Shown piece after piece: positions 37,799 through 58,930 of a DNA stretch of 64,000 bases. The DNA is taken from the NCBI GenBank assembly GCA_014382245.1, contig JACNKC010000077.1:7395-71394 (forward strand), given 5' to 3'. How positions within the stretch are numbered: position 1 is the stretch's first letter; every line of letters starts with the position of its first letter. The position numbers and the translations under genes are program-made. The stretch is from Pseudomonadota bacterium. GTDB taxonomy: Bacteria > Desulfobacterota > Binatia > UBA1149. A model generated the notes under the pieces. That model made no database searches, was not told where the DNA came from, and was given only the letters and a program-made list of their open reading frames with translations.

Positions 37799-38476
37799 GT
37801 GGACGGGAAACCAGGCTTCTTGAAGGAGAATCCCGCGGCGCCGGGAAATCGCTTGCTGCCGACCGAGGGCCAGCTGCGGACCGGCCCCTTCGCGCGCGGG
37901 ACCGTACGCGAGGCTACACGGGAACGTATTCTTGAGGGCGCCATGAAAGCAGTGTCCAGCCACGGACTCTCCAAGCTAGAAATGACCGATGTCAGCGCCA
38001 GCGCCGGGGTTTCCCGGGGCACGCTGTACCGATACTTCTCGAACCGGGAGGAGTTGCTTCACAGCCTCACTATTCGCGAAGCCCAGGACTTCTGGAAGCG
38101 CTGCGTGGAGGCGCTGGAGGCCTGCGAGAGGGATGACGAGCGCCTGAAGTTGCTGATGCTTCACGCCACCCGCTACGTCAGTGACCACGCCGCCCTGCAA
38201 CGCTTACTTGAGACCGACCCGGCCTTTGTCCTTTGCTCGCTCAGGCAGAGTTTTACCTCGGTGCGCGACGAGCTGGGGAGACTGCTCGCGCCGGCCCTGG
38301 AGAACAGCGGGCCGGTAAAAGCAGGCGTTGTTTCGGTGGACCAGCTGGTGGATTGGCTGACACGCATTCTCGTCACCACTTACCTCTTTCCGATCGAAGA
38401 CAGCGCTGCCATGGAGAGCGCCATGGAGTCCATGCACGGCCTGCTGGTCGGGCTGAGAGGATCTGATGAAGCGTGA
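37799..38476 (+). CDS. TetR/AcrR family transcriptional regulator (head of the oxidative cluster)
   Basis: HTH ...GLSKLEMTDVSASAGVSRGTLYRYFSNREEL. The start may be downstream of 37799. Confidence 0.78.
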   Translation: MDGKPGFLKENPAAPGNRLLPTEGQLRTGPFARGTVREATRERILEGAMKAVSSHGLSKLEMTDVSASAGVSRGTLYRYFSNREELLHSLTIREAQDFWKRCVEALEACERDDERLKLLMLHATRYVSDHAALQRLLETDPAFVLCSLRQSFTSVRDELGRLLAPALENSGPVKAGVVSVDQLVDWLTRILVTTYLFPIEDSAAMESAMESMHGLLVGLRGSDEA

Positions 38477-40411: not shown

Positions 40412-41526
40412 AAGATTACAAGGTCATTGACTGTGACCAGCACGTCATCGAACCGCCCGAGCTCTGGGAAGAGTGGCTGCCGAAGGAATTCGCGGACCGG
40501 GCGCCGCGCCTGGTCAAGGACGAGGACGGCGGGGACGCGTGGTTGCTCGGCGAGCACAAGGAGGCGATCGGCTTGGTAGCGGCCAAGGGTGTTTCGCCCA
40601 AGGATCTCAAGTGGACCGGCACCCGCTACGCCGATTTGCACCCTGGCATATTTCGCTCGGCCGAACGGCTCGAACTGATGGACGAGGACGGCATTGACGC
40701 GGCGGTTTTCTTTCCCCCCCAACGCACGATGATCTACTTCATGACGCTGAAAGACGCCGAATTCCATCTAGCGGGCATGCGCGCGTATAATGATTTTATA
40801 AGCGACTGGGTATCGGTAGACCGGAGCAGGCTCGGGGCTATCTGGCAGATGCCGGCAACGGGTGCCGACGACGCGGCAGCCGAGCTACGCCGGGCTGCCG
40901 CTGCCGGGGCCGTGGGTGTGGGGCTGGCTTCCTGGCCCAGTGGTGAAATGGTTCTCTCTGCTGCCGACGATCCGTTCTGGGCTGTCGCCGACGAACTGAA
41001 GATGCCGGTGCACGTCCACATCGGCCTCACGCCGGCGAGGCAACCGGTAAAGCGCGTTGCCGCACGCAAAGGTGGGGCCGCGCAGCTCGTCCTGTTGGCA
41101 GGCACGATGTCACGTATGCCCTTGATAATCGCCGAGATGATATTCAACGAAGTATTCGACCGTTTCCCGGGCCTGGTCATGGTCGGTGGGGAAGTCGGAG
41201 CGGGCTGGGTTCCTTACCTTCTCAGTGAAATGGATGACCGTTACCGGCGTAACCGTTACTGGTGCGATGTAAACCTGGAACTGGAGCCGAGCGAATACTT
41301 CCAGCGTAACTGGAAGGTGGGTTTCCTGAGGGATCCCTACGGCGTGCGCAACTGTCGCGACGTTGGTGTTGAAAACATGATGTGGTGCAGTGACTTCCCC
41401 CACCACATCAACGACTGGCCCAACTCCGGCCAACTTATAGCTGAAATGAGCAAAGGCGTAGACGCGGATGACGCCAGGAAGTTATTCTGCGAAAATGCAG
41501 GTCGGCTCTACGGCTTTACCACCTAG
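40408..41526 (+). CDS. amidohydrolase-2 family protein (ACMSD/LigW-like metal-dependent hydrolase/decarboxylase)
   Basis: MKDYKVIDCDQHVIEPPELW at the N-terminus and ...WCSDFPHH... at the C-terminus are typical of PF04909. The ATG overlaps the upstream stop (ATGA). Confidence 0.8.
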   Translation: MKDYKVIDCDQHVIEPPELWEEWLPKEFADRAPRLVKDEDGGDAWLLGEHKEAIGLVAAKGVSPKDLKWTGTRYADLHPGIFRSAERLELMDEDGIDAAVFFPPQRTMIYFMTLKDAEFHLAGMRAYNDFISDWVSVDRSRLGAIWQMPATGADDAAAELRRAAAAGAVGVGLASWPSGEMVLSAADDPFWAVADELKMPVHVHIGLTPARQPVKRVAARKGGAAQLVLLAGTMSRMPLIIAEMIFNEVFDRFPGLVMVGGEVGAGWVPYLLSEMDDRYRRNRYWCDVNLELEPSEYFQRNWKVGFLRDPYGVRNCRDVGVENMMWCSDFPHHINDWPNSGQLIAEMSKGVDADDARKLFCENAGRLYGFTT

Positions 41527-41554
41527 GCTCGATAGCAGAAGGATATACAGAAAA

Positions 41555-42763
41555 ATGGCTGGAAATGATTTCGATCCTGGCGAGCTGAGTCTTTTCGACC
41601 CGCGTTTCATAAGCGACCCCCACCCGGTGTACCGAAAGGTTCGCGCGCAATGCCCGGTGGCGGTCGACCCCTTTGCAGGCAACCCCATGCTGACGCGACA
41701 CGAAGACATCGCCGATGCCCTGCGCACGCCCGGTGTCTACTCCTCGGGTATGGACGCCACTGCGCTGGGCAACCAGCGCCCGCTGATCCCGCTGCAGGTC
41801 GACCCCCCGTTGCACACCGAATACCGTAAGCTGCTCGACCCCCGTTTTTCGCGGGCGCGCGTGCGCGAACTCGAAGGAGACGTCCGTCAGCTCGCCGGCC
41901 GCTTGGTCAATGACTTTGTTGAAAACGGACGTTGCGAATTCAACAGCGAATTCGCGATCCCGTTTCCCTGCTCCGTGTTCCTCGGCCTCATGGGGCTGCC
42001 CTTGGAAGATCTCGACACCTTCCTGGCGCTGAAAAACGGTATTATCAGGCCGCCGGCTACGGACCAGCAAGACGCCGAGGCAGCGCGTGAAAGAGCAGCC
42101 AGGAAGATAGACGATTACTTCACCCGCGCGCTGGCCAGGAAGAAAAAGAACCCCGGCGAAGATCTCATGAGTTGGTTCCTTGGCGCTGAGATCGAGGGAC
42201 GCAAGCTCACCCACGACGAGGTACTCGGGATTTGTTTTCTTTTCCTGCTGGGCGGCCTCGACACTGTCACGGCAACCCTGGGTTGCTCGGTTGAGTGGTT
42301 GGCGCGTAACCCGGTGGATCGCGCAAGGTTGGTCGCCGACCCGTCGCTGCTACCCGGGGCTGTTGACGAGTTGTTGCGTTTTCACACGCCGGTGGTCGGC
42401 GTAGCCAGGGTCCTGCGGCGGGGGGTTACCCTGGGCGGTCACGAGTACGAAGCGGGACAACCCATCACCCTGTTGCTGGGCTCAGCTAACACAGACAGCG
42501 ACGCCTTCAAGGAAGGCGACAGCGTAAAATTTGACCGGGAGCCCAATCCCCACCTGGCCTTCGGTGCCGGACCCCACCGTTGCCTGGGCTCCCACCTGGC
42601 TCGAATGGAATTAAAAATAGCTCTCGAAGAACTGCACAAGCGTATTCCCTCCTACGCTATAGCCGACGGCGAGAAGGTTCGCTTCGGCTTGGCCATTCGC
42701 GAAGTAGAATGCCTCCCGTTGGTGTTTCCTCCCGGAATCCGAACCCAGGCCGATGCGTCCTAG
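41555..42763 (+). CDS. cytochrome P450
   Basis: Heme-thiolate loop FGAGPHRCLGSHLARMELKIAL. I-helix and ExxR are present. An AAGGA SD precedes ATG 41555. Length 402 aa. Confidence 0.9.
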   Translation: MAGNDFDPGELSLFDPRFISDPHPVYRKVRAQCPVAVDPFAGNPMLTRHEDIADALRTPGVYSSGMDATALGNQRPLIPLQVDPPLHTEYRKLLDPRFSRARVRELEGDVRQLAGRLVNDFVENGRCEFNSEFAIPFPCSVFLGLMGLPLEDLDTFLALKNGIIRPPATDQQDAEAARERAARKIDDYFTRALARKKKNPGEDLMSWFLGAEIEGRKLTHDEVLGICFLFLLGGLDTVTATLGCSVEWLARNPVDRARLVADPSLLPGAVDELLRFHTPVVGVARVLRRGVTLGGHEYEAGQPITLLLGSANTDSDAFKEGDSVKFDREPNPHLAFGAGPHRCLGSHLARMELKIALEELHKRIPSYAIADGEKVRFGLAIREVECLPLVFPPGIRTQADAS

Positions 42764-44028
42764 TGCGGCTGTTGCTGGACCAAACCCGTTGCGTGGGGCA
42801 CGGCCGCTGCTACGAACTCGCGTCCGGCCTGTTCGGCGAAGACGATCGCGGGCACTGCGTGTTGCTGGCGAGCGAGGCCGACTGCGATGACGAGGGGGCC
42901 AGGAAAGCGATCGCCAATTGCCCCGAGGGCGCTATATCCATGGCCCAGGATGGTCACGCTGAAGCAGACACCTGGGACCTCTTCTGCGATCGCCTCAAGG
43001 AAGCCGGAAAGGTCATCAGCGAGGCTCGCGCGCCCGGCGACGAGCTGACAAGGGCCGAAGGATATCGATACTTGTCCCGACTGACCCGGCTCGCGCTTGA
43101 AAAACACCTTGAGCACGCCGATCCGGCAGCGCCGACTTTCTACAGTCTCAGCCACGAAACGGCCAAGATCGGCTGCGATAACCCGGATAGTTTTTACCAG
43201 AATGCCGTACTCGATGGGCAATTCGAATACCGAGTCAGCGGCACGCGCGGCACGGCCGCCTACCTGGGCATAGGCGCTTATTATGGCAACTACGGCAGCG
43301 ACGCGCCGTCCGGCTGCAGCGGCTATCTCGAAGGAGCGCAACTGGAATTGGATGAGCAGGGCGGTTTCGAGCTTTTACTGGGTGGCGAGAAGAAGCCTGG
43401 CAACTGGATCGCCTTGCGCCCGGACAGCTCAATGCTCATCGTCAGGCAGGTGTTCCTGGATCGGGTCAACGAGGCCGCGGGCAATCTGGCCATTGAGCGA
43501 ACCGGCGGCAATTCACCGCGCATGCTGGACATAACCGCGTTGGAAGATGGATTGGATGCCGCCGCGGCTTTTGTTAAAGGCACCGCGGTGATGTTTGCCG
43601 AGTGGGCCGAGGAGTTCGAACGCTGCCCCGGGGAGCTCATCGCCATGGACAGTGCCCGTACCGCGGGTGCCCACGGGGATCCAAACATTTCGTTTTACAT
43701 GGGCGCGTGGCAACTGGAAGAGGGCGAAGCGCTGCTGGTCGAGCTAGTCGCACCGCCTTGCCTGTACTGGAACTTCCAGTTGAACAATCACTGGATGGAG
43801 TCGCTCGATTACCGTTGGCAGCGCATCCACGTCAACTCGCATGATGCAGTAGAAGACTCGGACGGGGTAGTCCGGATCGTGATCAGCCCGAGCGACCCCG
43901 GTTTGCCTAACTACCTGCACACCAGCGGCCACGGTCACGGAACCATGGGTTTAAGGTGCATCAAGGGGCGAGCTCCGTTCTCGATCCAGACGAAACGCTG
44001 CCGTATTTCCGAGCTCGGGGGTGTTTAA
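42763..44028 (+). CDS. ferredoxin (3Fe-4S/4Fe-4S type) fused in-frame to a DUF1254/DUF1214 domain protein
   Basis: GTG 42763 overlaps the P450 TAG (TAGTG). The first roughly 65 aa, VRLLLDQTRCVGHGRCYELASGLFGEDDRG...DCDDEGARKAIANCPEGAI, match the C-x5-C...CP P450-partner ferredoxins. No stop precedes the roughly 350-aa DUF1254 (DNPDSFYQNAVLD) and DUF1214 (GNWIALRP...LIVRQVF; GLPNYLHTSGHG) part. Confidence 0.65.
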   Translation: MRLLLDQTRCVGHGRCYELASGLFGEDDRGHCVLLASEADCDDEGARKAIANCPEGAISMAQDGHAEADTWDLFCDRLKEAGKVISEARAPGDELTRAEGYRYLSRLTRLALEKHLEHADPAAPTFYSLSHETAKIGCDNPDSFYQNAVLDGQFEYRVSGTRGTAAYLGIGAYYGNYGSDAPSGCSGYLEGAQLELDEQGGFELLLGGEKKPGNWIALRPDSSMLIVRQVFLDRVNEAAGNLAIERTGGNSPRMLDITALEDGLDAAAAFVKGTAVMFAEWAEEFERCPGELIAMDSARTAGAHGDPNISFYMGAWQLEEGEALLVELVAPPCLYWNFQLNNHWMESLDYRWQRIHVNSHDAVEDSDGVVRIVISPSDPGLPNYLHTSGHGHGTMGLRCIKGRAPFSIQTKRCRISELGGV

Positions 44029-45235: not shown

Positions 45236-46039
45236 TCAGCGGTCCCAGGCGATGTTTTGACCCCACGAGGAGCCAAGCATCGCCGCCGGCGTGTTCTTGT
45301 TTATGTGGCCGATAAGGCCGCCGTAGATTCCGTATCCCACGAGTTCCTGCAAGCGCGGATCAAAGTCGCGCACCCTCTCCCGGGGAATGCCCAGTTGTTG
45401 GTTTTCCTGCTGCCGTATGTAGCCGGCACAATAGTTCATGGCGACCCCCAACCTGGCCCCATCGCTGGCGTTACGTCCACCACCGTGCCACATGGAACCG
45501 TTCCACAGCAACACGTCACCCCGCTTCATTTCCGCGGCAACGGTTTCAAGCGGGACGCCGTACTCCGGAACGTCCTCGCGCAGGTGAGAGCCCGGTATGA
45601 TACGAGTGGCCCCGTTCAGCTCGGTAAACTCGGTCAGTGCCCACATGGTGTTACAGACCAGGGCCGGGTGGGGACGCGCAATAGGAATGAGCTGGTCATC
45701 GGCGTGCAGGGGTTGGGCTAATTCACCGGGTAGTATTTTGATCGACGACAAGGACGACACCAGGCAGCCGCTGTCGAGGACGCCTTCAACGACAGGCAAC
45801 ACGGCTGGGTGTACTGGTATTTTCTCAAAAACCGGGTCAAGGGCCAGCAAGTTGTAGATTCTCAGCGTGTTGACACCTTCGAAATCGTTACCGGCGGGCT
45901 CGACAGATAATTCCTTCTCGAGGCGGCTGACGGCGGCTTCAATTTCGTCTATCAACCCTGGATCAACCGAGTCTTCAACAACGGTGTAACCCTGCTTTTC
46001 TACCCTCGCGAGGTGCGCAGCTATTTCGGTTTCGCTCAA
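45236..46039 (-). CDS. phytanoyl-CoA dioxygenase (PhyH) family Fe(II)/2-oxoglutarate oxygenase
   Basis: PhyH motifs ...PLHADDQ... (H-x-D), ...IIPGSHLRE... and ...GSMWHGGGRN. The proposed start TTG 46039 overlaps the TGA of the DIO-like gene (TTGA); GTG 46087 is an alternative. Confidence 0.75.
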   Translation of the reverse strand: MSETEIAAHLARVEKQGYTVVEDSVDPGLIDEIEAAVSRLEKELSVEPAGNDFEGVNTLRIYNLLALDPVFEKIPVHPAVLPVVEGVLDSGCLVSSLSSIKILPGELAQPLHADDQLIPIARPHPALVCNTMWALTEFTELNGATRIIPGSHLREDVPEYGVPLETVAAEMKRGDVLLWNGSMWHGGGRNASDGARLGVAMNYCAGYIRQQENQQLGIPRERVRDFDPRLQELVGYGIYGGLIGHINKNTPAAMLGSSWGQNIAWDR

Positions 46040-46785
46040 CTGGCCACTGCCTGTTCGCGAGAATAGGAGGAGATAGCCTCTTCCCACTCGGCCGGTAGGA
46101 AGAACATGGGACCGGGCCCGCTCTTGTAAACCACGCTACCGTCCAATCCGACCAGCGCCAGGCGTTCGGGAATCGCGTTCCACGCGTTCGATACGGCATT
46201 GTCCATGCCATCAACGAGGGCTGGCGGCTCAAGCGCGGTTTGTAACATGCACGCCTGGCCAGCGTCTATCCTCTGGTCGATGCTCGTGGGTTGGGTAAAA
46301 ACTACACCGTCTGCAAGGTTCTCGTCCACCTGCCAGCCATCGCTCGGGTGAATTTCCTTGATGTAAACAACGTAAAAATCGACCTGGTCTTTCCAGCGAC
46401 GGTAGATCTCGTTAACGGCACCAGCCTGGTACCGGAAGGGCGGTCAAGTGTAGCTGCCAAAAACGAGAGCGACCGGCCGTTTGCCGAAATGATCTGAGAG
46501 GGTGACCGCCGGACCGTCCTTGTCGTTGAGCCGAGCGAGAGTGAAGTCAGTCGCAGCCTGTCCGGCCTGCAGCGATCCCGGCTCGGCCGCCATGGATTCG
46601 GTCAGGTGCTGGGCCGACAGGGGATTCTCCATCGCCGCGGCCAAGCGCCCCCAGCCTTCTTCGCCCAGCTCTGCATCTACGGCCTTGAAATTGAGTCCCT
46701 GCTGTTCTGCCAGGGCCTGGACCAGTTCCCGAATTTTTGCTGTTTCCATGGGGCCTAATCTGAGACAGGGGTCGGCCTCTTGCAA
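46036..46785 (-). CDS. iodothyronine-deiodinase-like thioredoxin-fold selenoprotein (in-frame UGA = selenocysteine)
   Basis: Two same-frame ORFs (46444-46785 and 46036-46329) are separated only by TGA 46444-46446. Reading through gives ...KRPVALVFGSYT-U-PPFRYQAGAVNEIYRRWKDQVDFYVVYIKEIHPSDGWQV...VDGMDNAVSNAWNAIPERLALVGLDGSVVYKSGPGP..., collinear with the vertebrate deiodinase core (FGSxTUPPF; VYIxEAHPSDGW; DRMDN...YG; GGKGP). The start is TTG 46785 or ATG 46749. Confidence 0.72.
46416..46434 (-). other. candidate bacterial SECIS hairpin downstream of the UGA
   Basis: The mRNA reads UGA-CCGCCCUUC-[CGGUACC-AGGCU-GGUGCCG]. This is a 7-bp stem (one G-U pair) with a 5-nt loop, starting 10 nt after the UGA, within the positional window of bacterial SECIS elements. 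Confidence 0.4.
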
Positions 46786-47848: not shown

Positions 47849-49057
47849 TCAGCTGGGTGGGTGACCGGACAGCGTGATCACAGTGATTTCCCTTGGGGTC
47901 GCGATGCGTACCGGCTGCCCGGTCATCCCCAGGCCCCGGTTCACGTGCAGGCAGGACCCCTCGCTGTGGTAAGTACCGCGTGGGTACCTGGTCATAAAAC
48001 GCGCCAGGGATAACCGTACCCGCCCGGGCAGAGGCAGTGACAATTGCCCGCCATGGGTGTGGCCAGCCAGGACGAGATTCAAGCCAAGTTCGGCCGCCTG
48101 GGGAAACAAGTCGGGGCGATGCGCGAGAAGAATACTGGGCTCCCCGGCCGGCAGCGCGACTGCGAGTTCGCCGAGGACCGGGTCTTTTAACAGGCCCCTG
48201 GCCCAGTCCTTGCCACGATCGTCGAGACCAATCAGGTGCAGCCGGGCCCCGCCAACATCCACCACTGTGCCCCTGTCGCGCAACACCTCGAAGTCGGTCC
48301 AGGAGTGGAGGGCGGCCGTCACGGCATCGGCGCCGGTCGCTCGATCATGATTGCCCAGTATGGCGTAAACACCATGACGAGCGCGGAGATCGCCCAGTGC
48401 GGGAAATGTCTGCGGGGCATGTTGAAGGCCATCGGTGATGTCCCCGGTAATACACAGAAGGTCGGGTTCAAGAGCGTTTATGATCGAAACGTAACGGCTG
48501 ATGCGTTCAGCCGACATGAAGCGCCCGAGGTGGATATCACTCAGTTGCACCAGGCGCAGGCCCTCGAGATTCGTAGCGAGGTCGGGAACCGCGACCGATA
48601 TCTGGTTGATGTGCAGCTCGGCCTGCCCACGCGTGTACCCCCAGGCCATGGCCGCGAATACCGCGAGCAGTCCCGCGGTGGTGAGTTGCCGAGCGATTTC
48701 GTGTGCGCCGGGCGAAAGCGGCAGTGTGGGCGATGCTCCAAGCGCGTACAGCACAACACCGGTAAGGGAGCCTACGACCCACGCGAAAACGAGGAAGGAG
48801 GAAGCGAAGATTGAGCTGAACGCCAGCCCTGTCCAGGCTCGCTGTATCCGCGCAGTGATCTTACCGCGCGGCGAAAGAGACAGCAGCGACCGGTTAACTA
48901 AGAAAAAACTCAGCGGAGCAGCCAGGTGCACCAACCAACCGCCTGTGAATCGGGGACCGAACAACCACGAAATCAGCCACCAGGCACAAGCCCACTGCGA
49001 AAGAGCTACGAAACCCAGCAGTAGTGAAAAGAAATGTCTCCAGAAAAAGGAGACCAA
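47849..49057 (-). CDS. membrane-anchored metallophosphoesterase (calcineurin-like)
   Basis: N-terminal TM helices, then LVQLSDIHLG..., ...CITGDITD... and ...GNHD/GHTHGGQ phosphoesterase motifs. Confidence 0.8.
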   Translation of the reverse strand: MVSFFWRHFFSLLLGFVALSQWACAWWLISWLFGPRFTGGWLVHLAAPLSFFLVNRSLLSLSPRGKITARIQRAWTGLAFSSIFASSFLVFAWVVGSLTGVVLYALGASPTLPLSPGAHEIARQLTTAGLLAVFAAMAWGYTRGQAELHINQISVAVPDLATNLEGLRLVQLSDIHLGRFMSAERISRYVSIINALEPDLLCITGDITDGLQHAPQTFPALGDLRARHGVYAILGNHDRATGADAVTAALHSWTDFEVLRDRGTVVDVGGARLHLIGLDDRGKDWARGLLKDPVLGELAVALPAGEPSILLAHRPDLFPQAAELGLNLVLAGHTHGGQLSLPLPGRVRLSLARFMTRYPRGTYHSEGSCLHVNRGLGMTGQPVRIATPREITVITLSGHPPS

Positions 49058-49059
49058 TG

Positions 49060-49329
49060 TCAGGCAGGCATACGCCGAACCAGCTTGTCTCGCATGCGCT
49101 CGCAGTGCCGGTCAACGGTGGCCCGCAGCGCACTCAGACTTTCGTCATCAGAGTCGCCGTGGAGGCTCTCGATCCTGTTGACCAGCGAGTCCAACCTCAT
49201 GCGCACCTCGTTGAGCTCGCACACCATGCTCGAGAGTTGTTCGGTTTTTTTTATACGCTCTCGCGCACTGCTTGTTTTGATTGTCGATTCCACTGCGACT
49301 GTTCCCCCCGCTGCCGGTTGTGTACCCAC
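49060..49329 (-). CDS. small hypothetical protein (possible coiled coil)
   Basis: An 89-aa ORF directly abutting the downstream gene (3-nt gap). No recognisable family; coding status is uncertain. Confidence 0.3.
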   Translation of the reverse strand: MGTQPAAGGTVAVESTIKTSSARERIKKTEQLSSMVCELNEVRMRLDSLVNRIESLHGDSDDESLSALRATVDRHCERMRDKLVRRMPA

Positions 49330-49410: not shown

Positions 49411-50160
49411 TCAGGTGAACAGGTCGTCTTCGGGCGGCCGAAGGAGCTCAATGGCACTGCCGGCACCCAGTTCGGCGCCGCTACCTCGCACCAGTACGGC
49501 CGGCACTCCAGCATCCTTTTTCATGGCAATACCGGCTGCGGCAGCCAGCTGGTCGGCGACCGCGAGGGATGTGTGCTCGAGGGTTCTTCCCGTCCAGTCA
49601 CGGCCGCCCTCCCTGTTGTCGACGGGCAACAAGCCCGCGCAGCCTATGGCCAGGTCGATCTGCCCCAATCTCCAGGCGCGGCCGAAGGTATCCGAAATGA
49701 TCACGCCGACCTGCGCTTCGTAGTGGACAGCAAGCCGCGACATCAGTCGGAGCGCCGACTTGTCCGAATCTTCGGGCAGGAGGGTAGCGTCGCCCTCGAC
49801 GGCCTGGTTTGAGCAGTCAACGCCCGAGTTGGCGGCAACAAAGCCGGGACCGGTGCGAGTGATGAGATGCCCGTCCTTCTTGCGCAGGATTTGGCTCGCT
49901 TCGAGTAGCGCCAGCTCTACGACGGCCGGGTCCTTATCGTGCGCATTGGCAAACTCAAGGGCCTCGTCCGAGGGCTCGACCTCGGACAGCTTGCGTACCC
50001 TTCCTTCGGCCCGTGACACGACCTTCTGGCATACGACCAGGACGTCGCCGGATTTTACGCCGACCTTCTGCTTGTCGATAGCATCGATGAGCAAGGCGGC
50101 GAGATCGTTCCCAGGCAGGACCATGGGGACGCCTTCGATGGGTATCAACATGGTTACCAT
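49411..50160 (-). CDS. cofE: coenzyme F420-0:L-glutamate ligase
   Basis: 249 aa. ...GVKSGDVLVVCQKVVSRAEGR..., ...VAANSGVDCSN... and ...IISDTFGRAWRLGQIDLAIGCAGL match the F420_ligase family (PF01996). Confidence 0.8.
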   Translation of the reverse strand: MVTMLIPIEGVPMVLPGNDLAALLIDAIDKQKVGVKSGDVLVVCQKVVSRAEGRVRKLSEVEPSDEALEFANAHDKDPAVVELALLEASQILRKKDGHLITRTGPGFVAANSGVDCSNQAVEGDATLLPEDSDKSALRLMSRLAVHYEAQVGVIISDTFGRAWRLGQIDLAIGCAGLLPVDNREGGRDWTGRTLEHTSLAVADQLAAAAGIAMKKDAGVPAVLVRGSGAELGAGSAIELLRPPEDDLFT

Positions 50161-50161
50161 T

Positions 50162-51130
50162 TCAGCGTTCCGTCCCGCCGAGCGGTATCTTCAAGAGAAA
50201 CCGCGCGAGTGCCAGCGAACGCCGCTTACTATTCAGCAGGGTGTTGCGCTCAAGCAGGCGGGGCCAGGTGGCTTCAGGCCGCCGTGGTGCGTCCCCGGGC
50301 GAAACGACCAGCGACGTCGCGAGGCCCTCGTAAAAGTCTGCTATGCCAGCGCTTCCTCGACCCGCACCAAGGCTTTTCATCATAGCGACCAAGGGGCCCT
50401 TCACCGCCCGACCATTGACCAGTGGACTGACCGCAATGGTCTTGCGGCACACGGCCCCCAGCGCTGCGCGTAGACCCGGAATCGCAAGCATGGGCGCAAT
50501 GCTTACGTAGGGGTTGCTGGGAGCGATTATTACCTTGTCGGCCGATGCCAGGGCCTCGCTGACCCCGGGCGCCATGCTGGCCCCGGACGCGCCCTTGTAA
50601 GTGATGCCGTCCACCCTCGGGCGGGCGCCTTGCTTGACGAACCACTCCTGGAAGGCAAAACGGCGTCTACCCGACCTGAGCACGGTACGCACCGGGTCGT
50701 TGCTCATGGGCAATACCGAGGTCCGAATACCCAGTTGTGTGCAGATTCGCCGGGTAGCCTGGGCAAGAGAGGAGCCCTCTCTCAACAAGTGGCTACGGTA
50801 AATGTGAAGGGCGAGGTCCTGGTCGCCAAGCGAGAACCATTGGTCACCGAAATAACGACCCAGCCAGGGCAGGGCGTTCCGGGTATCGCCGCGTATACCC
50901 CAGCCCCTCTTGATCGGGGCAAGCCCGGCCAGTGTGTACGCCACCGTGTCGAGGTCCGGAGATACCTGCAGTCCATAAAAACTCTCGTCGTCTCCCGTGT
51001 TGACGATCACGGTCAACCTGCGGGGATCAACGACTTCAGCGAGTCCCCTAAGGAGTCGGCAGGCTCCCACTCCACCCGCCAGCAGGGTGATTCGTGGGTT
51101 GGCCGGCAAGGCGTCCATCATCGCTTTCAT
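50162..51130 (-). CDS. cofD: 2-phospho-L-lactate transferase (LPPG:FO transferase)
   Basis: ...ITLLAGGVGACRLLRGL...VIVNTGDD... matches the CofD/UPF0052 N-terminal motif. The annotated start overlaps the cofH 3' end by about 80 nt; the real start is unresolved. Confidence 0.78.
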   Translation of the reverse strand: MKAMMDALPANPRITLLAGGVGACRLLRGLAEVVDPRRLTVIVNTGDDESFYGLQVSPDLDTVAYTLAGLAPIKRGWGIRGDTRNALPWLGRYFGDQWFSLGDQDLALHIYRSHLLREGSSLAQATRRICTQLGIRTSVLPMSNDPVRTVLRSGRRRFAFQEWFVKQGARPRVDGITYKGASGASMAPGVSEALASADKVIIAPSNPYVSIAPMLAIPGLRAALGAVCRKTIAVSPLVNGRAVKGPLVAMMKSLGAGRGSAGIADFYEGLATSLVVSPGDAPRRPEATWPRLLERNTLLNSKRRSLALARFLLKIPLGGTER

Positions 51131-52304
51131 CCAACAGCTCGTACAGGGTGTTCCGTTGCCGGGGTTCTCTACCCCGCGACATGATCATGCTCCTGAGTTC
51201 ATCGGCCGAAGTGTACTCTCCTGAATCCGCACCCGCTTCGCGCGAGATGCTCTCTTCCATCAGGGTGCCGCCAACATCATTGCAACCCGCGTCGAGACTC
51301 AGGGTTGCCAACTCGCGACCGAGCTTGACCCAGGAACTCTGCAGGTTATCAACCAGCCCGTCCAGCATCAGTCGGCTGGTTGCGTACACGGCTATGTCGA
51401 GACGCCCCTGTGGCACCGGGGATACCAGGCCCTCGGCGTAAAGCTGGGTGTTCTGCCAGATAAAACGCAAGGGTACGAACTCGCTGAGTCCACCGGTGTT
51501 GCGCTGGATGCCGCGCAGTACCTCGATGTGTTCGGCCATGTGCCGCGGTGTTTCCAAGTGGCCGTAGAGCATGGTGGAGGTCGTAGGCAAACCCACCTCG
51601 TGGGCGGTGGTCACGATCTCTATCCAGCTGTCGGTGTCGAGCTTGTCGTGGGTAAGGACCTTGCGGATCTCCGGGTCAAAAATTTCCGCGGCGGTACCGG
51701 GCATGGTATTCAACCCCGCTTCGAGGAGTAGCTCGAGATACGGCCGGTAGGCCAGGTTCATTCGATGGGCGCCGTACTGGATCTCCATCGGCGAAAACGC
51801 GTGAATATGAAGGTCGGGGTAGGCCCCGCGCACCGCTCGGAGCAGTTGCAGGTAGCCGTCGTCGGGCATAACCGGGTTGAGTCCACCCTGCATGCATACC
51901 TCGGTAGCTCCCAGCGCCACGCCCTCGCCGATACGGTGGAGAACGTCAGAGACATCGCGGTCGTAAGCCCGGGGACTGTTCTTGAGGTGGGCGAAGGAGC
52001 AGAACTTGCAGCCCACGAAACAAACGTTAGTCCAGTTCACGTTGCGGTTGATGACATAGGTCACCGTATCGCCTACCGCGCGCCGCCTCAGCTCGTCGGC
52101 GACTCCCACGAGGGCGGCCAGCGAATCGCCTTGCAAAGCAAACAGCTCGCTAGCCTCGTCTACGGTCGGCGCTCGGCCGGCCAGCGAACGCTCGAGGATG
52201 GCCGCCAGGCCGGGCGGAGTGGCCGCCAGGCGGTTTTCGAGATCCCGCTGGTCCGCAAAGAGGTACTCGACTCTCTCGGGTGACTGTTCGGTCTGGTAAC
52301 TCAC
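51048..52304 (-). CDS. cofH: FO synthase subunit 2 (7,8-didemethyl-8-hydroxy-5-deazariboflavin synthase), radical SAM
   Basis: CFVGCKFC radical-SAM cluster motif and the CofH-type C-terminal domain. It is a gene separate from cofG. Confidence 0.83.
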   Translation of the reverse strand: MSYQTEQSPERVEYLFADQRDLENRLAATPPGLAAILERSLAGRAPTVDEASELFALQGDSLAALVGVADELRRRAVGDTVTYVINRNVNWTNVCFVGCKFCSFAHLKNSPRAYDRDVSDVLHRIGEGVALGATEVCMQGGLNPVMPDDGYLQLLRAVRGAYPDLHIHAFSPMEIQYGAHRMNLAYRPYLELLLEAGLNTMPGTAAEIFDPEIRKVLTHDKLDTDSWIEIVTTAHEVGLPTTSTMLYGHLETPRHMAEHIEVLRGIQRNTGGLSEFVPLRFIWQNTQLYAEGLVSPVPQGRLDIAVYATSRLMLDGLVDNLQSSWVKLGRELATLSLDAGCNDVGGTLMEESISREAGADSGEYTSADELRSMIMSRGREPRQRNTLYELLDESDDGRLAGQPTNHPAGGWSGSLPTP

Positions 52305-53515
52305 AGGGTTGCACCCCCCTGGGCCGTGATCGCCGCGGGCAGCTCCGCAAAGCGTTCAACCGCCAATCGCATGTCAGGATCCAGGAACTCGTCGTTCACG
52401 TACTCAGGATAAACCGGCAAGCGGGGCTCGAGTTCGAAACCCAGCCCGGAACAGGTCTGCGCCAGGTCTTCTAGATGAGGCCAGGGGTCGCCGGGGTTAA
52501 CGTAGTCCGCGGTCACCGGAGAGATGCCACCCCAATCGTTTATACCGGCATTAACCAGGCGCGCGTGCCCCTGGGGGCTGAGGTTGGGCGGTGCCTGGAT
52601 GTTCATAGCTGGTCCCAGGATCAGGCGGGCGATCGCCACGCAGCGTATGAACTCGTCTTCTGTCGGTTCCGGAAATCCGCTCATCGGCGTGGAGTCCTTG
52701 TGCCTGAAGTTCTGTATGATGACTTCCTGCAGGTGACCGTACTGCTCGTGTAATCGGCGCAATTCGAGGAGGCTCGCGATTCTTTCAGCCTCGGTTTCAC
52801 CAATGCCCACGAGGATGCCGCTGGTGAAGGGTATCCGGAGCTCGCCCGCGTCGGCGATCATGCTGACCCTTGCCGCCGGATCCTTGTCGGGCGCAAACTG
52901 GTGAGGCATTCCTCGTGCGCGCAAACGGGGGCTGACATTCTCGAGCATCAAGCCGAAGCTCACGTTCAGCGGTCGCAGGTTGCGCATCTCATCGTGCGAG
53001 AGCAGCCCCGCGTTGGTGTGCGGCAGCAGATCTGCTTCGAGGGCCAGCGAGCAGGCAAGGCCCACGTACTCGGCCGTGCTCGCGGCTCCCCATCGTTCGA
53101 GCTCGGCACTGAACCCGCGAAAAGCGATCTCGGGTTTGTCGCCAAGGCACATGAGGGCTTCTATGCAGCCGGCTGCTTTACCCCGTTCAGACCACTGGCG
53201 GATCTCGTCAGGGGTCATGGTCCATTCGCCTGCCTCGCCGGGATCCCGGCGAAAGGTGCAGTACGTACACCTGTCCCGGCATAGATTGGTCACAGGGAGA
53301 AAGACCTTCGGGGACCAGGTGAGCACTCGGTCCCGATCGCGGTCGCGCTGCCGGCAGGCCAGCTCACAGATTTCTGCGGTCAGGGACCACTCGCGGTCGC
53401 CGTCAGCACTCCCGCGGGGACTGCCAGCGTGCAGAAGGGCATAAGCATCGTCGTCGCCCAGGCGCTCAAAAGCGCGGGCCCTGGCGAGCGCCCTGTCTAG
53501 AGGATTACCGACCAT
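52301..53515 (-). CDS. cofG: FO synthase subunit 1, radical SAM
   Basis: Motifs ...VFLPVTNLCRDRCTYCTF... The start overlaps the cofH start region by 4 nt. Confidence 0.83.
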   Translation of the reverse strand: MVGNPLDRALARARAFERLGDDDAYALLHAGSPRGSADGDREWSLTAEICELACRQRDRDRDRVLTWSPKVFLPVTNLCRDRCTYCTFRRDPGEAGEWTMTPDEIRQWSERGKAAGCIEALMCLGDKPEIAFRGFSAELERWGAASTAEYVGLACSLALEADLLPHTNAGLLSHDEMRNLRPLNVSFGLMLENVSPRLRARGMPHQFAPDKDPAARVSMIADAGELRIPFTSGILVGIGETEAERIASLLELRRLHEQYGHLQEVIIQNFRHKDSTPMSGFPEPTEDEFIRCVAIARLILGPAMNIQAPPNLSPQGHARLVNAGINDWGGISPVTADYVNPGDPWPHLEDLAQTCSGLGFELEPRLPVYPEYVNDEFLDPDMRLAVERFAELPAAITAQGGATL

Positions 53516-53588: not shown

Positions 53589-54983
53589 CTACTGCGCGTC
53601 GGGCTGCTCTATGCCGAGCTTGTCCATGCGGTATTTCAGAATCCGCCTGGTCGTGCCCAGGGTCCGCGCGGCCCGGGTCTGGTTGTGCCGGGCCCGGCTG
53701 AGGGCCTCTTCGATGATGTCCTTTTCAAACTCGTCCACGGCGAGGTTGAGGCTCTTGCGTCCATCGAGCACCATCTGCCGCGTGCCCGGTCCCGCAGTAG
53801 AGGGCCCCGCCGCCATGTCAGGCGGTAGGCTGTTGACCCCGATCTCATCGCAGTCCGGCGCCAGTACCAGGGTTCTCTCGATCACGTTCTCCAGTTCGCG
53901 CACGTTGCCCGGCCAGGGATAGCCGAGCAGCTGCTCCACTGTCTCCTGGCCCAGCGTCCTCGAAGGCAGACCGTGCTCCCTGGTTTTCTTTTCGACGAAG
54001 TGGCGAATCAGCAGCGGAATGTCTTCAGGCCTGTCGCGCAGGGGAGGGAGGGTCACCGTGACCACGTTCAACCGGTAGTACAGGTCTGCCCTGAACGCGC
54101 CTTCATCAATCAGCTTGCGCAGGTCCCTGTGGGTGGCAGCCACCACGCGCACGTCCACTTGCAAGGGGCCCGAGCCGCCCACCCGCATGATCTCGCCTTC
54201 TTCGAGCACCCTCAGCAACTTGGCTTGCAAGGACGGGCTCATCTCTCCTATTTCGTCAAGGAACAGGGTGCCCTTGTCAGCGATTTCGAACTGGCCGGTC
54301 TTTTTTGCCGACGCGTCGGTGAACGAACCTTTTTCGTGACCGAACAGTTCGCTCTCGAGCAGGTTGTCGGGAATCACCGCGCAATTAATAATGACCAGGG
54401 TCTCACTGGCCCTCGGGCTGTTGTAGTGAATAGCCTTGGCGATGAGTTCTTTGCCGGTGCCTGACTCGCCGCTGATGAGCACCGTGGTTTTGAGCGGGGC
54501 CACTCGACCCACGGTATTGAAGACGTCCTGCATAAGGGAGGATTCGCCGATCATGTTGTCCACGGAGTAGTGAGAACCAACTTCACTGCGGAGTTGGTCA
54601 ACCTCGCGAAGCAGGGCGGCATTTTTGATTGCACGCGAGGCGACCATGCGCAGCTCGTCGACATCGAAGGGCTTGGTGATGTAGTCAAAGGCTCCCAGTT
54701 TCATGGCCTTCACTGCCGTGCGCACCGTCTTGGTGGCCGTCAACATGACTACTGGTAGGGCAGCATCACCCTCGCGGATGTGCTCGAGCACTTCGAGCCC
54801 ATCGATACCCGGCATGAGTATGTCGAGAAAGGCGAGGTCGGGACTGTTGTCCTTCAACCACTCGATGGCGTCTTCGCCACAGGGCTGGGTCACCGTCTCC
54901 CAATCGTCCTTGAGTACCATGCGCACCGATTCGCGCACGCCAGCCTCGTCATCAACTATCAGAACTACCGGTTTGCCTGTCAT
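53589..54983 (-). CDS. sigma-54-dependent Fis-family response regulator (NtrC-type)
   Basis: Receiver domain VLIVDDEAGVRESV...D. AAA+ sigma-54 activator domain with GESGTGKE, GAFTDA-type and LYYRLNVVTVTLPPLRDR motifs. C-terminal Fis HTH. Length 464 aa. Confidence 0.9.
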   Translation of the reverse strand: MTGKPVVLIVDDEAGVRESVRMVLKDDWETVTQPCGEDAIEWLKDNSPDLAFLDILMPGIDGLEVLEHIREGDAALPVVMLTATKTVRTAVKAMKLGAFDYITKPFDVDELRMVASRAIKNAALLREVDQLRSEVGSHYSVDNMIGESSLMQDVFNTVGRVAPLKTTVLISGESGTGKELIAKAIHYNSPRASETLVIINCAVIPDNLLESELFGHEKGSFTDASAKKTGQFEIADKGTLFLDEIGEMSPSLQAKLLRVLEEGEIMRVGGSGPLQVDVRVVAATHRDLRKLIDEGAFRADLYYRLNVVTVTLPPLRDRPEDIPLLIRHFVEKKTREHGLPSRTLGQETVEQLLGYPWPGNVRELENVIERTLVLAPDCDEIGVNSLPPDMAAGPSTAGPGTRQMVLDGRKSLNLAVDEFEKDIIEEALSRARHNQTRAARTLGTTRRILKYRMDKLGIEQPDAQ

Positions 54984-56667
54984 CTACCTCATCCTCCACC
55001 GCCCTTGGCAGTTTCCACGTCAGTCTCGATCCATCCTTGGTATTGGTCACACCGAGGTCACCCCTGTTACGCCTGCTCAGTTCACGGGCCAGCGCCAGTC
55101 GCCATGAAGCCGGCGGCCCACCTCCCGAAGTCATGCCAGCCAGGGCCGCGAGTTGCCCTGAACTACCCGGCACGTCGACCACCATCGCTCCGTCTTCGCT
55201 TACGGTCACCATCGCCGCGGACCCGCGTGGCAGGGTTTCAACAACGGCGTCCACCATGCAGTCGATCGCAAAACAAAGCTGTTGCAGGTCGGCTTCTACG
55301 CGCCACCCCCGCGGCAGATCAATGTGTACCGCTGCGCGGGCCTCATCGCCCCGGTCGATGAGCGCGTGCTCAAACAACTCAGCCACGTCGGCCGTTATCG
55401 GGTCGGGAAGCGAGAACCCCTCGTACTCGACAAGCGTGTCAACGATGCCGCTCAAGCGATCGCAGGCCCCCCTGGCCAGGCGCGCGAGCTCGTTGTCTTC
55501 AGGCGCAATAGAACTGAAGGTTTTCAGTGTCGTCAGCGGATTTCGCAGGTCATGGGCCAGGTGAGCAAGCAGCTGTTCCAGGGGGAGAGGCTCGCCAATA
55601 TCCTCACCGCCATCGCTCTCCGCAACAACGCGGGCCGGAGCGGGAATCGACTGCAAGGTCGGACGGGTCACGCGCTCGACTCCGAACACGATGTCTTCGG
55701 CCTCCAGCTCACGACGCCCGCCGGGTTCGCAGAGCAACAACGCACGACTCCTGCGCAGCACGACTTCGAGCTCGGTAGTGTTGCCCGGCCAGGCGTAAGC
55801 CTGCAGGCGTTCGGCAGCCGAAGCAGCAAGGCAGAACGGAGAGCTGCCGGAGTTCTCGAAAGCGGCGAGCATTGCCCGCGCTAGCTCCGGGATGCAGAAG
55901 GCCTGTTCCCTGAGTGGAGGCAGCAGGGCCGTGAGGCCAGCCACCCTGTAGTACAGTGCCCTTACGAGTCGGCCGTCGGTAGCGAGGCTCTCGGGGCCTT
56001 CGGCCATGCCGGCGACCACGCTGCAACCTGAAACCGCCAGCAGAACCGCCAGTTGTTCTTGCTCGGCGTGGCTGCGCAGCTCGATATCTGGAAGGTAAAC
56101 CACACCCCGCTCGCAAGCAGCTATGAGGCCGGCCGCATCCGCAGCAGCCGTGACGACGATGAACTCGCTGTCGGGGCCTCGCAAAGCAGCCAACGCCGCG
56201 GCCACGTTTTCTTTTCCAACACCTGGCTCACCCACCAGCACGAGCGGGACCTGGCCGGCCGCGGCTTGCTTGAGGACGGGTTCGGCGTGGGCCGGAATCC
56301 AGGGAAAAGTGAGCCACGCGGCTGGCAATGCTTCTTCGCCTACACGGCCACCCGAGCAAAGCCTGGCCACGGCCGCGCTCAACTCAAAGAGGGCAAAAGG
56401 GTGCGGCAGCACTTCCCGACCGGGGCCTTCCAGCGAGCCGCCCCGGGCTGCGCTATCAACCAGGAGCAGCGACGGCGCCGAGCTGCCGATTTCGACAGCG
56501 GCAGAGTCACAGCAATTGACCACCACGGCGTCGGCCTTCGCCAAAGCGGCGGGATCGGCTGATCTGCTCAAGGTCCAGCCCTCGGGCAATACTTCCTCCA
56601 CGGCAACCACGAAACGCCCAAGAGAGTCCAGGAGCAGCAGCTCAGGCATGGATGAGGCCCTCGGCAT
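54952..56667 (-). CDS. atypical regulatory protein: degenerate sigma-54-activator-like AAA domain fused to a histidine-kinase-like module
   Basis: Walker A GEPGVGKE, ...LYYRVAGLTALLPPLRE... and ...YAWPGNTTELEVV... resemble EBP central domains, but the GAFTGA region is deleted. The C-terminus has a HisKA H-box (LAHLAHDLRNPLTT) and a degenerate HATPase_c. The start may be ATG 56649 (an 8-nt overlap with the upstream gene). Confidence 0.55.
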   Translation of the reverse strand: MPRASSMPELLLLDSLGRFVVAVEEVLPEGWTLSRSADPAALAKADAVVVNCCDSAAVEIGSSAPSLLLVDSAARGGSLEGPGREVLPHPFALFELSAAVARLCSGGRVGEEALPAAWLTFPWIPAHAEPVLKQAAAGQVPLVLVGEPGVGKENVAAALAALRGPDSEFIVVTAAADAAGLIAACERGVVYLPDIELRSHAEQEQLAVLLAVSGCSVVAGMAEGPESLATDGRLVRALYYRVAGLTALLPPLREQAFCIPELARAMLAAFENSGSSPFCLAASAAERLQAYAWPGNTTELEVVLRRSRALLLCEPGGRRELEAEDIVFGVERVTRPTLQSIPAPARVVAESDGGEDIGEPLPLEQLLAHLAHDLRNPLTTLKTFSSIAPEDNELARLARGACDRLSGIVDTLVEYEGFSLPDPITADVAELFEHALIDRGDEARAAVHIDLPRGWRVEADLQQLCFAIDCMVDAVVETLPRGSAAMVTVSEDGAMVVDVPGSSGQLAALAGMTSGGGPPASWRLALARELSRRNRGDLGVTNTKDGSRLTWKLPRAVEDEVDDRQTGSSDS

Positions 56668-58930
56668 AAAGGTTGTCGGTCGCCTGTTCGAGAGCCGGGG
56701 AATCGACAGGCAGGGTTATGGTAAAGGTCGTACCACTGCCCGGCGTGCTGTCGACAGCGACCGAGCCACCGTGATTGAGTACCAGCTGCCTGGCGATGGC
56801 GAGTCCGAGCCCGGTGCCCTCTGTCCTGGTAGTAAAAAACGGTTCGAAGGCCTGTTCGACCTGCTCTTCGCTCATGCCGCAGCCATCGTCAGAGATCGTA
56901 AGCGTGGCTGCGTCGGATCCGTTGATCCAACCCCGCCCGGTGCTCACCGTGACACAGCCCTTGCTCCTGCCTTCGCAAGCCTGGATCGCGTTGTGAACTA
57001 TGTTGACGAGGACCTGGTTGATCTTATCCTCGTCGGCGATAACGGGAGGAACCGACGCGTCGGTTTCGATACTCAGCGATACTCCGCTCTTTCGCGCGTG
57101 GCTGTCCAGCAGCGTCGCCACCCGTTCGACCAGCTCGTCGAGGTTCAGCGGGTTTCGTTCGTGCGTGGCCGGGCGCGCAAAAGTAAGAAGCTCGTTAACC
57201 AGGGCAGTTATCCGATCGACCTCGGACAAGGTCAGGTCAAGAAAGGATTCCCGGTACTCTTCGTCGAGGTAACGTTCGGGTAATAGCTGCGTAAAGGTTC
57301 TTATCGAAACCAGCGGGTTGCGAATTTCGTGCGCAAGCACGGCTGCCATGGTGCCGATGGTGGCCAAACGCTCGGAGTGTTGCAACACCTCGTTGCTGCG
57401 CGACAGCGCTTCGTTCAAGCGGACGCTGAGAACGGCCACGGCCAGTTGCCCGGCCAGGGCATCGAGCAGCTCCAGGTCGTGGCGAGAAAATATCCGCGCG
57501 TCGCGTCGCGGACCGAGCAGCATCAAGCCCACGAACTGTTCCCGCGCGACCAGTGGCACCACCACGTCGCTCTCGTAGCGCTCCATTTCGAGGCAACCCT
57601 GCGCGGCCAGCGAAAGCGGCGCGGCGGCCTGTTCGGCTTCTTCGCGCACAGTCGGGGCGCGCAATGACAACGCCCAACCTGCCACCGGGTTGCCGGTTTC
57701 CAACTCCTCGGGCCAGTGTCCCCCGTGAGGCCGGGCCCCGTGGAGGACGTAGTGACCCTTGCCTTTCTCCAGGTAGATCGCGCAGGAAGCCACGCCGTGC
57801 CGCGACGCCAGGGTGCGGGCAACCCGCGACACCATCTCATCGGTGTCGCGAAGCAGGCAAAGCTCCCGGCTCAACTCCAAGACAGCGTCGCGATGCCCGC
57901 GACCATCTTCGAGCAGCGATTCCTCTATACGACTGCCGGCACGTTGCGAGAGGCGGGGGTAGAGGAGAATGCCGCCCACCAGCAGTCCACACGCGAGCAG
58001 CGAGAAGCGGGGTGATACCTGCCCGAAGCTTGCCTCCTGGCCCAGGGCGAGCAGCACCCAGCAAACAGAGCCCACCGCGGCCAGCACCGCCGAGTTGGCA
58101 AGAGTTCGCGCGAGGGCCTGGTCGAGGTCCATCAAGCGGTGGCGAAAAAATGCAAACGACATCAACCACGCCAGGGCGATGCTGCCCGTAGACCCCACGA
58201 GATAGCCGGAAGCCCAGGACGCGGTCCAGTCTGCCGGCGCTGAAAAACGCAAAAAGCCATGCGCAGCACAAACCCAGGCCAGGCCCGCTCCCAGGCGCAG
58301 GTAGCGGGCCTGGTTGCGCTTGAGACCCACGTTTTCACCAGCGGCAGTATGCAGCGAGAGAAACAACACGGCGACCACCAGCATCACGTAGACGGGAACC
58401 AGGCCGCCCATGGGCCCGGCCACCAGGGTCCAGCGAACTTCACCGCTGCCGGCGGTCACCGCCTGTACACCTCCCACGGTGGCCGCGGCGTAGGTACAGG
58501 CCACCAGGGCGACTGCCCCCGCGTAAGCAGCCCTGAGAGTCGGTTTTTCGGGCGTACCGAAGAGCAGCCGTACCGTGTGGAGGAAAAGCAGCGGCGCCAG
58601 TATCGTTCCAAGCAGGAGCTGTTCCGACCAGGCCCTGGCAGCGAGTTCAGAAAGTGGCCGCGTAAGGGCAAAGGCAGCTACGTTGGCGATCACCATTGCC
58701 AGGCAGAAGGCAAAGAAAAGCTGGTGAAGAAGCCGACCGGGCCGACGCGCGAATACAAGCACGCCCAGGAACAGGTGGAATGCCGCCGCTGCAAGGGGGA
58801 GTGCGCTGACCGCGGTCACCCGCGTTCCTCCCTGCTCGCGACCAATGCCGCTGTTGCATTCAGCTTTACGCCCACCCAGACCCCTCAGCGGCTTACCGAC
58901 CAGCCTGTCGGCAACACCCAGCGGCCCCAA
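56642..58930 (-). CDS. sensor histidine kinase (polytopic membrane sensor + GAF + HisKA + HATPase_c)
   Basis: About 7 N-terminal TM helices and a GAF-like region. H-box MAAVLAHEIRNPL. N/G boxes ...HNAIQA...DDGCGM...GTGLGLAIARQLV...GSGTTFTITLP. The start is possibly downstream of 58930. Confidence 0.85.
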   Translation of the reverse strand: MGPLGVADRLVGKPLRGLGGRKAECNSGIGREQGGTRVTAVSALPLAAAAFHLFLGVLVFARRPGRLLHQLFFAFCLAMVIANVAAFALTRPLSELAARAWSEQLLLGTILAPLLFLHTVRLLFGTPEKPTLRAAYAGAVALVACTYAAATVGGVQAVTAGSGEVRWTLVAGPMGGLVPVYVMLVVAVLFLSLHTAAGENVGLKRNQARYLRLGAGLAWVCAAHGFLRFSAPADWTASWASGYLVGSTGSIALAWLMSFAFFRHRLMDLDQALARTLANSAVLAAVGSVCWVLLALGQEASFGQVSPRFSLLACGLLVGGILLYPRLSQRAGSRIEESLLEDGRGHRDAVLELSRELCLLRDTDEMVSRVARTLASRHGVASCAIYLEKGKGHYVLHGARPHGGHWPEELETGNPVAGWALSLRAPTVREEAEQAAAPLSLAAQGCLEMERYESDVVVPLVAREQFVGLMLLGPRRDARIFSRHDLELLDALAGQLAVAVLSVRLNEALSRSNEVLQHSERLATIGTMAAVLAHEIRNPLVSIRTFTQLLPERYLDEEYRESFLDLTLSEVDRITALVNELLTFARPATHERNPLNLDELVERVATLLDSHARKSGVSLSIETDASVPPVIADEDKINQVLVNIVHNAIQACEGRSKGCVTVSTGRGWINGSDAATLTISDDGCGMSEEQVEQAFEPFFTTRTEGTGLGLAIARQLVLNHGGSVAVDSTPGSGTTFTITLPVDSPALEQATDNLYAEGLIHA

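Follow-up and report, generated by a model that had tools for sequence, protein, structure and literature searches.

Known Pathways of Coenzyme F420 Biosynthesis and the Binatia Locus

The pathway of coenzyme F420 biosynthesis is well known, and its closest described versions are the archaeal (methanogen) Cof pathway, the mycobacterial Fbi pathway, and the F420 gene clusters of Proteobacteria and Chloroflexi. Three variants of the side-chain precursor have been distinguished, namely 2-phospho-L-lactate (2-PL), phosphoenolpyruvate (PEP), which involves a reduction by the C-terminal part of FbiB or by FbiE, and 3-phosphoglycerate (3-PG) (PMC8498797). In mycobacteria, FbiC consists of CofG fused to CofH, FbiB bears a nitroreductase domain at its C-terminus, by which dehydro-F420-0 is reduced, and the guanylyltransferase is encoded by the separate gene fbiD, which offers a precedent for an unlinked cofC (PMC8498797). 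The genomically predicted producers named in the same review of 2021 include Acidobacteria, Firmicutes, Nitrospinae, Rokubacteria, Tectomicrobia, and Dadabacteria, and Binatia are not listed among them (PMC8498797). In the literature searched, no paper was found that links Binatia (Binatota) to F420 biosynthesis, and the main genomics paper on Binatota makes no mention of F420. The locus considered here occupies positions 49411-53515 of a 64-kb stretch of contig JACNKC010000077.1 (hereafter the window, that is, the whole stretch of 64,000 nucleotides that was analysed) from an uncultured marine member of Binatia (UBP10). It is a core coenzyme F420 biosynthesis operon with the gene order cofG-cofH-cofD-cofE and, as such, an ordinary four-gene cofactor operon, with which the globally distributed and uncultured Binatia join the predicted F420 producers.

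With the archaeal Cof pathway, the Binatia locus shares the separate CofG and CofH, the single-domain CofE, the lack of a cofC next to cofD, and a CofD that matches the solved Methanosarcina mazei enzyme over its full length. The archaeal loci that were compared (L012, L054, and L061-L065; the L numbers denote individual loci throughout) differ in that their cofD stands without the other genes alongside, whereas in Binatia all four genes form one tight operon. The mycobacterial pathway is similar in that its guanylyltransferase, too, is encoded apart from the transferase and the ligase and in that FbiA is matched by the Binatia CofD; however, cofG and cofH are split in Binatia, and the CofE has no reductive nitroreductase domain. 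The proteobacterial and Chloroflexi clusters are composed of the same enzyme families (CofD identity of 38-46%), but carry cofC next to cofD, while the Binatia operon is without it. Moreover, cofG and cofH are fused in four annotated proteobacterial plasmid clusters and in most of the proteobacterial loci, and the plasmid clusters also include npdG (Fno), in contrast to the split genes and the lack of npdG in the Binatia operon. Thus, the clade-wide layout of Binatia, with split cofG and cofH, cofD, cofE, and an unlinked cofC, differs from both the proteobacterial and the Chloroflexi layouts.

Identity of the Four Genes of the Operon

The curated equivalog cut-offs of NCBI (NCBIfam) were taken as the acceptance threshold, and all four proteins scored above them, which bears out the contiguous minus-strand arrangement of split cofG, cofH, cofD, and cofE that the original prediction had read from the sequence. 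The genes cofG (52301-53515, minus strand, 404 aa) and cofH (51048-52304, minus strand, 418 aa) encode the two radical S-adenosylmethionine (radical-SAM) subunits of the synthase of FO (7,8-didemethyl-8-hydroxy-5-deazariboflavin), with the scores of 428.6 bits for TIGR03550 (cut-off 213) and 451.9 bits for TIGR03551 (cut-off 374), respectively. In Pfam, CofG is matched by Radical_SAM and CofH by Radical_SAM and CofH_C (PF19288), and the CxxxCxxC motif is present in both translations, as CRDRCTYC in CofG and CFVGCKFC in CofH. The scores of CofH for the menaquinone paralogs were below the respective cut-offs (322 vs 428 for MqnC and 303 vs 434.5 for MqnE).

The gene cofD (50162-51130, minus strand, 322 aa) encodes the transferase by which the activated side-chain precursor is attached to FO, with the formation of F420-0. 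Its product reached 266.4 bits for TIGR01819 (cut-off 257.45), belongs to the Pfam family CofD, and in the PDB search matched at full length both the solved M. mazei CofD (3C3D, E 2.6e-55, residues 16-313) and the Mycobacterium smegmatis FbiA (6UVX, E 3.8e-52). The last gene of the operon, cofE (49411-50160, minus strand, 249 aa), encodes a single-domain F420-0:gamma-glutamyl ligase, with 230.6 bits for TIGR01916 (cut-off 180.65), with PF01996 (F420_ligase) as the sole Pfam match, and with matches at E 2e-41 to the CofE structures 2G9I, 2PHN, and 7ULD, the Archaeoglobus fulgidus CofE being among them. The nitroreductase domain of the FbiB type was not found in CofE, for which the model NF009810 gave 187 (cut-off 304) and was matched only at profile positions 15-242 of 449.

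The genes are closely packed, with an overlap of 4 nt between cofG and cofH and a gap of 1 nt between cofD and cofE. At its 3' end, cofH shares a dual-coding overlap with the 5' end of cofD (51048-51130, minus strand), with a length of 83 nt with the longest start, in agreement with the length of about 80 nt read at the outset, and of at least 71 nt whichever ATG start is taken. The overlap is formed by a non-conserved C-terminal tail of CofH, 25 residues long, to which the CofH model no longer extends. Its length is unchanged in the closest relatives L014 and L015 (91-93% DNA identity), and in more distant Binatia it amounts to 59 nt in L005 and 17 nt in L002, with no overlap in L003. Because of this variation, the overlap should be regarded as a quirk of the lineage and not as a functional signature. 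Simple scans for promoters and terminators gave no signal above chance.

Conservation of the Operon Layout in Binatia

The closest genome records are those of 'Candidatus Binatia bacterium CB21_323.63' and 'bacterium UBP10_UBA1149', with the CofD identity of 93% and the DNA identity of 91-93% over 10-15 kb. The next relatives of CofD are 44-57% identical and come from metagenome-assembled genomes (MAGs) labelled Binatia or 'Deltaproteobacteria', and the exact CofD sequence occurs only on a 4-kb Logan contig of the run ERR13319468, without further context. Closed chromosomes of Binatia are also on record (OZ243961.1, OZ246887.1, and OZ241744.1).

For the comparison of gene neighbourhoods, 84 loci (80 around CofD relatives and 4 others) were screened with the window proteins and with a CofC hidden Markov model (HMM), the seeds of which were five annotated CofC proteins encoded in the plasmid-borne F420 clusters of Paraburkholderia, Croceicoccus, Thermomicrobium, Miltoncostaea, and Aromatoleum. 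The flanks examined extended up to 10 kb per side and were shorter for some contigs. All 15 independent loci of the Binatia type (L002, L003, L005, L013-L023, and L058) had the order cofG-cofH-cofD-cofE, and their flanks, as far as examined, contained no cofC. The identity of CofD across these loci ranges from 44% to 93%, and the open reading frames (ORFs) are all intact, so that the preservation of the order and of the reading frames over such a range speaks for selection on a working pathway. In contrast, cofC directly adjoins cofD in 33 non-Binatia bacterial loci, which belong to Chloroflexota, Gamma- and Alphaproteobacteria, Holophagae, Myxococcota, Deinococcus, Armatimonadetes, and some Actinomycetota. 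Most of the proteobacterial loci have the order cofE-cofD-cofC together with fused cofGH. In the actinomycetotal loci L027, L036, and L037, cofD-cofE is present and cofC is missing; this is the known mycobacterial layout and a further precedent for an unlinked cofC. Since cofC is missing from the flanks of all 15 loci, its unlinking is a trait of Binatia and not an accident of the window.

Two further observations were made in the same screen. A locus of the Binatia type with cofG-cofH-cofD-cofE and a CofD of 45% identity was found in a record titled 'MAG: Klebsiella pneumoniae isolate TH-08apr19-175' (L016, CAMBFS010000013.1), the label of which is probably wrong. A large group of solitary CofD homologues of 35-43% identity was present in MAGs of Betaproteobacteria (Burkholderiales) and in some MAGs labelled 'Enterobacteriaceae' (L069-L091), with no cofC, cofE, cofG, or cofH within 10 kb of the cofD homologue, and these may be either CofD-like paralogs that serve another role or a part of fully dispersed F420 genes.

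Search for the Guanylyltransferase CofC

The Pfam scans of about 50 ORFs across the whole window detected no PF01983 (CofC), and the CofC HMM applied to all six-frame segments of the 64-kb window gave no match, the best E being 2.1. The window thus lacks cofC/fbiD, as had been noticed at the outset. The absence of cofC from 64 kb does not mean its absence from the genome. Outside the window, the search with the profile of the five CofC proteins returned no CofC of Binatia among its 120 best matches, which were all from other clades. The same result was obtained when a Myxococcota MAG (L060) supplied the CofC seed, with the 120 best matches again all from other clades and none from Binatia; among the clades in which cofC is linked, Myxococcota are the nearest, and the CofE of L060 is as close to that of the window as the CofE of distant Binatia is. 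Two of the matches named 'Deltaproteobacteria' were inspected and had the cofD-cofC-cofE arrangement of the Myxococcota type, so these loci are not of the Binatia type. The searches are unable to reach a CofC of about 35-40% identity to the seeds, and therefore their silence is weak evidence.

The Ddn-Like Protein as a Candidate User of the Cofactor

A small ORF on the plus strand of the window (27632-27952, 106 aa), the GTG start of which overlaps the stop codon of an upstream aminotransferase gene, had been called Ddn-like in the original prediction. Taken alone, it misses the cut-offs of the family models (21.6 vs 22 for PF04075 and 37.9 vs 46.35 for TIGR00026), and a sequence search of the PDB with it gave nothing significant. 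When 1.84 billion representative proteins were searched exhaustively, only 78 relatives were recovered, mostly of 105-150 aa. In an alignment of 21 sequences of this family, GRKSG and W..N are invariant; PF04075 is matched by 18 of the 21 members, and DUF2255 also by 11. The profile of the same 21 sequences retrieved from the PDB Ddn itself (3R5R, E 4.3e-8), MSMEG_3358 (3H96, E 1e-6), and other proteins of the FDOR-A family.

The AlphaFold (AF2) model of the protein has a predicted local distance difference test score (pLDDT) of 88.5, and its top matches in Foldseek are 3H96 and 3R5R, with template modelling (TM) scores of 0.77-0.79. The leading matches (3H96, 3R5R, 8D4W, 7KL8, and 3R5Z) are F420-dependent FDOR-A structures with TM scores of 0.74-0.79, and the first 14 matches all belong to the FDOR-A/Ddn family, most of them being annotated as F420 reductases or as F420-binding. 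The likeness to the actinobacterial Ddn consists in the predicted split beta-barrel and in the alignment of GRKSG and W..N with GRKTG and W..N of Ddn. The difference is that the Binatia protein corresponds to the core only, without the N-terminal extension, falls below the family cut-offs, and represents a tiny subfamily. The Ddn-like label is, therefore, justified at the level of the family profile and the predicted fold, where the protein appears as a divergent FDOR-A/Ddn member. It is probably an F420H2-dependent reductase, and the conservation of the motifs suggests the binding of F420.

Proposed Pathway and Alternative Explanations

According to the proposed explanation, CofG and CofH, acting as separate radical-SAM proteins, would convert tyrosine and 5-amino-6-ribitylaminouracil into the deazaflavin FO. 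CofD would then combine FO with a guanylylated three-carbon acid phosphate (derived from 2-PL, PEP, or 3-PG) to give F420-0 or its variant, to which the single-domain CofE would add the gamma-glutamyl tail. The four genes are translationally coupled through the two overlaps and the 1-nt gap. The gene of CofC, the presumed maker of the donor for CofD, most likely lies at another place in the genome, as does the mycobacterial fbiD, and the cofactor would probably be used by such enzymes as the small Ddn-like FDOR-A protein. The explanation as a whole, that is, an F420 operon with cofC unlinked clade-wide and a Ddn-like user of the cofactor, is assigned a probability of about 0.8, and F420 is presumably made in this bacterium. 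The location of cofC at another site of the Binatia genome is in itself considered likely, and the calls of pathway completeness for Binatia MAGs hinge on finding that distant gene.

The chemistry of the side chain is less accessible from this locus. In the work of Hasan et al. (2022, PMC8764529), the precursor specificity is attributed mainly to residues of CofC, with CofD adding selection, and, on that account, the precursor would not be predictable from the genes present at the locus. For the same reason, the phylogeny of CofD, which had been recommended for predicting the 2-PL, PEP, or 3-PG chemistry, should be a poor predictor. If PEP is the precursor, a stand-alone FbiE-like reductase is needed, and none is present in the window.

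Several points weigh against the proposed explanation. The margin of CofD over its equivalog cut-off is narrow, just 9 bits. CofC and CofD have been reported to function only together (PMC8498797), and, with their genes adjacent in the 33 loci mentioned above, the unlinking is atypical for Gram-negative lineages. Both CofC searches returned other clades only among their 120 best matches, and hence the placement of cofC elsewhere in the genome stays an assumption. Finally, Fno, Fgd, LLM oxidoreductases, and nitroreductases of the FbiE type were not found by the Pfam scans of the window. The narrow margin of CofD would also favour the reading that cofD and cofE are paralogs unrelated to F420, of the YvcK (UPF0052) branch of PF01933 and of the folate-ligase type, respectively, the former having been named beforehand as the finding that would overturn the assignment. 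However, the YvcK model gave only 34 bits on CofD (cut-off 196) compared with 266 bits for the CofD model, the YvcK-type structures 2HZB and 2O2Z were matched at E 4e-4 only, compared with about 1e-55 for 3C3D and 1e-52 for 6UVX, and the folate gamma-glutamate ligase model gave 45.6 on CofE (cut-off 350). The low YvcK score and the full-length structural matches to CofD, FbiA, and CofE exclude the paralog scenario, and, with cofD and cofE sharing one operon with cofG and cofH, the chance left for this reading is negligible.

A more serious alternative, though an unlikely one, is that Binatia have no homologue of CofC at all and use a non-homologous nucleotidyltransferase or a different donor for CofD, which would constitute a new variant of the side-chain step, with an unrecognised alternative enzyme for the activation if cofC is truly absent. 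It would account for the lack of a cofC next to cofD throughout the Binatia loci, in the window as well as in the flanks of the 15 loci, when most other bacteria keep the two genes together, and it accords with the lack of a match named Binatia among the 120 best of either CofC search. Yet that absence covers only about 10 kb around cofD and one 64-kb window, the searches are of little weight owing to their blindness to a CofC of 35-40% identity, no candidate replacement gene is common to the close and the distant loci, and F420 synthesis independent of CofC is without precedent in the review (PMC8498797). It is, in turn, very improbable that the main role of the operon is to provide FO, for instance as the antenna chromophore of a photolyase, with cofD and cofE decaying or recruited to other purposes. 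The step of CofG and CofH is the only self-sufficient one when CofC is not encoded in cis, and the Pfam scans of the window did not reveal an F420-reducing dehydrogenase, which fits this reading; but cofD and cofE are intact, coupled in translation to cofH, encode full-length equivalogs, and are conserved across Binatia at 44% to 93% identity, while a protein of the Ddn family is encoded in the window and a photolyase was not found there. The F420 operon with a distant cofC thus accounts best for the locus.

Genes Flanking the Operon

The closer relatives keep the synteny of MeaB, LipB, a histidine kinase, a sigma-54-like/HisKA protein, an NtrC-type regulator, and cofGHDE, followed after cofE by a small ORF, a membrane metallophosphoesterase, bioB, and PhyH. 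On the upstream side, the gene of the NtrC-type sigma-54 response regulator (53589-54983, minus strand) ends 73 nt before cofG, in the same order in L002, L003, and L005. It is preceded by the gene of an unusual 571-aa protein (54952-56667, minus strand) that combines an AAA+ region resembling a sigma-54-interaction domain (Sigma54_activ_2 and AAA_lid_14) with the phospho-acceptor domain HisKA and has no HATPase_c match. This gene lies between those of a GAF histidine kinase (56642-58930) and of the NtrC-type regulator, and the trio precedes cofG in L002, L003, and L005. Control of the operon through sigma-54 by the upstream two-component system was considered and set aside, as no canonical -24/-12 element is seen in the 73-nt gap upstream of cofG.

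Downstream of cofE, a small ORF (49060-49329, minus strand, 77-89 aa) without a Pfam match separates the operon from the gene of a calcineurin-like metallophosphoesterase (47849-49057, minus strand, PF00149), which has a hydrophobic N-terminal region and is probably membrane-bound. Homologues of the small ORF are at the same position in L014, L015, L005, and L006, and the metallophosphoesterase is so in L003, L005, L014, and L015, though not in L016 and L019-L023, which are loci of distant Binatia. In L003 and L005, both genes follow cofE so closely that stop and start codons overlap or nearly abut. In some distant Binatia, the place after cofE is taken by the gene of a protein of about 408 aa (L019 12154-13389, L021 11701-12927, L023 12681-13895, and L020 15643-16932) that has no Pfam family and, by our own reading, an N-terminus like a signal peptide; its start overlaps the stop codon of cofE in L021, and a kinase gene of the APH family adjoins it on the opposite strand. 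In other distant Binatia, FBPase/aldolase genes follow cofE.

These neighbours were considered as possible replacements of CofC and rejected: the small ORF and the metallophosphoesterase are conserved in the closer Binatia only, and in the distant Binatia the place after cofE is taken by the protein of about 408 aa, with its signal-peptide-like N-terminus, or by the FBPase/aldolase genes. The kinases of the APH family occur near both groups, but are about 27% identical between them and are, therefore, paralogs. No gene able to replace CofC was found that is conserved in close and distant Binatia loci alike.

Other Observations in the Window

Between PhyH and bioB (46036-46785, minus strand), two ORFs (46444-46785 and 46036-46329) constitute one frame split by a single in-frame TGA at 46444-46446. 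The read-through product of 249 aa carries FGSYT-U-PPF, which we take to be the active-site motif of iodothyronine deiodinases, and PF00837 is matched by its C-terminal part. In L014 and L015, the TGA is conserved, as is the protein sequence to either side of it. The TGA is followed at 9 nt by the start of an 8-bp hairpin. A tRNA-Sec is not present in the window. The gene probably encodes a deiodinase-like selenoprotein, with the UGA read as selenocysteine.

On the plus strand, adjoining a tRNA-Leu (30505-30591), one ORF (30707-31621) combines HTH_Tnp_1 (residues 2-78) with a region similar to SMP-30/gluconolactonase (residues 114-215) and is probably a remnant of an insertion sequence fused to, or disrupting, a neighbouring gene. 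The block of Rieske oxygenase, amidohydrolase, P450, and ferredoxin genes at 38441-43032 is partly shared with the approximately 91%-identical L014, and the BLAST segments against L014 skip about 38441-40408 and 41521-43032, which suggests that the block is a variable catabolic island.

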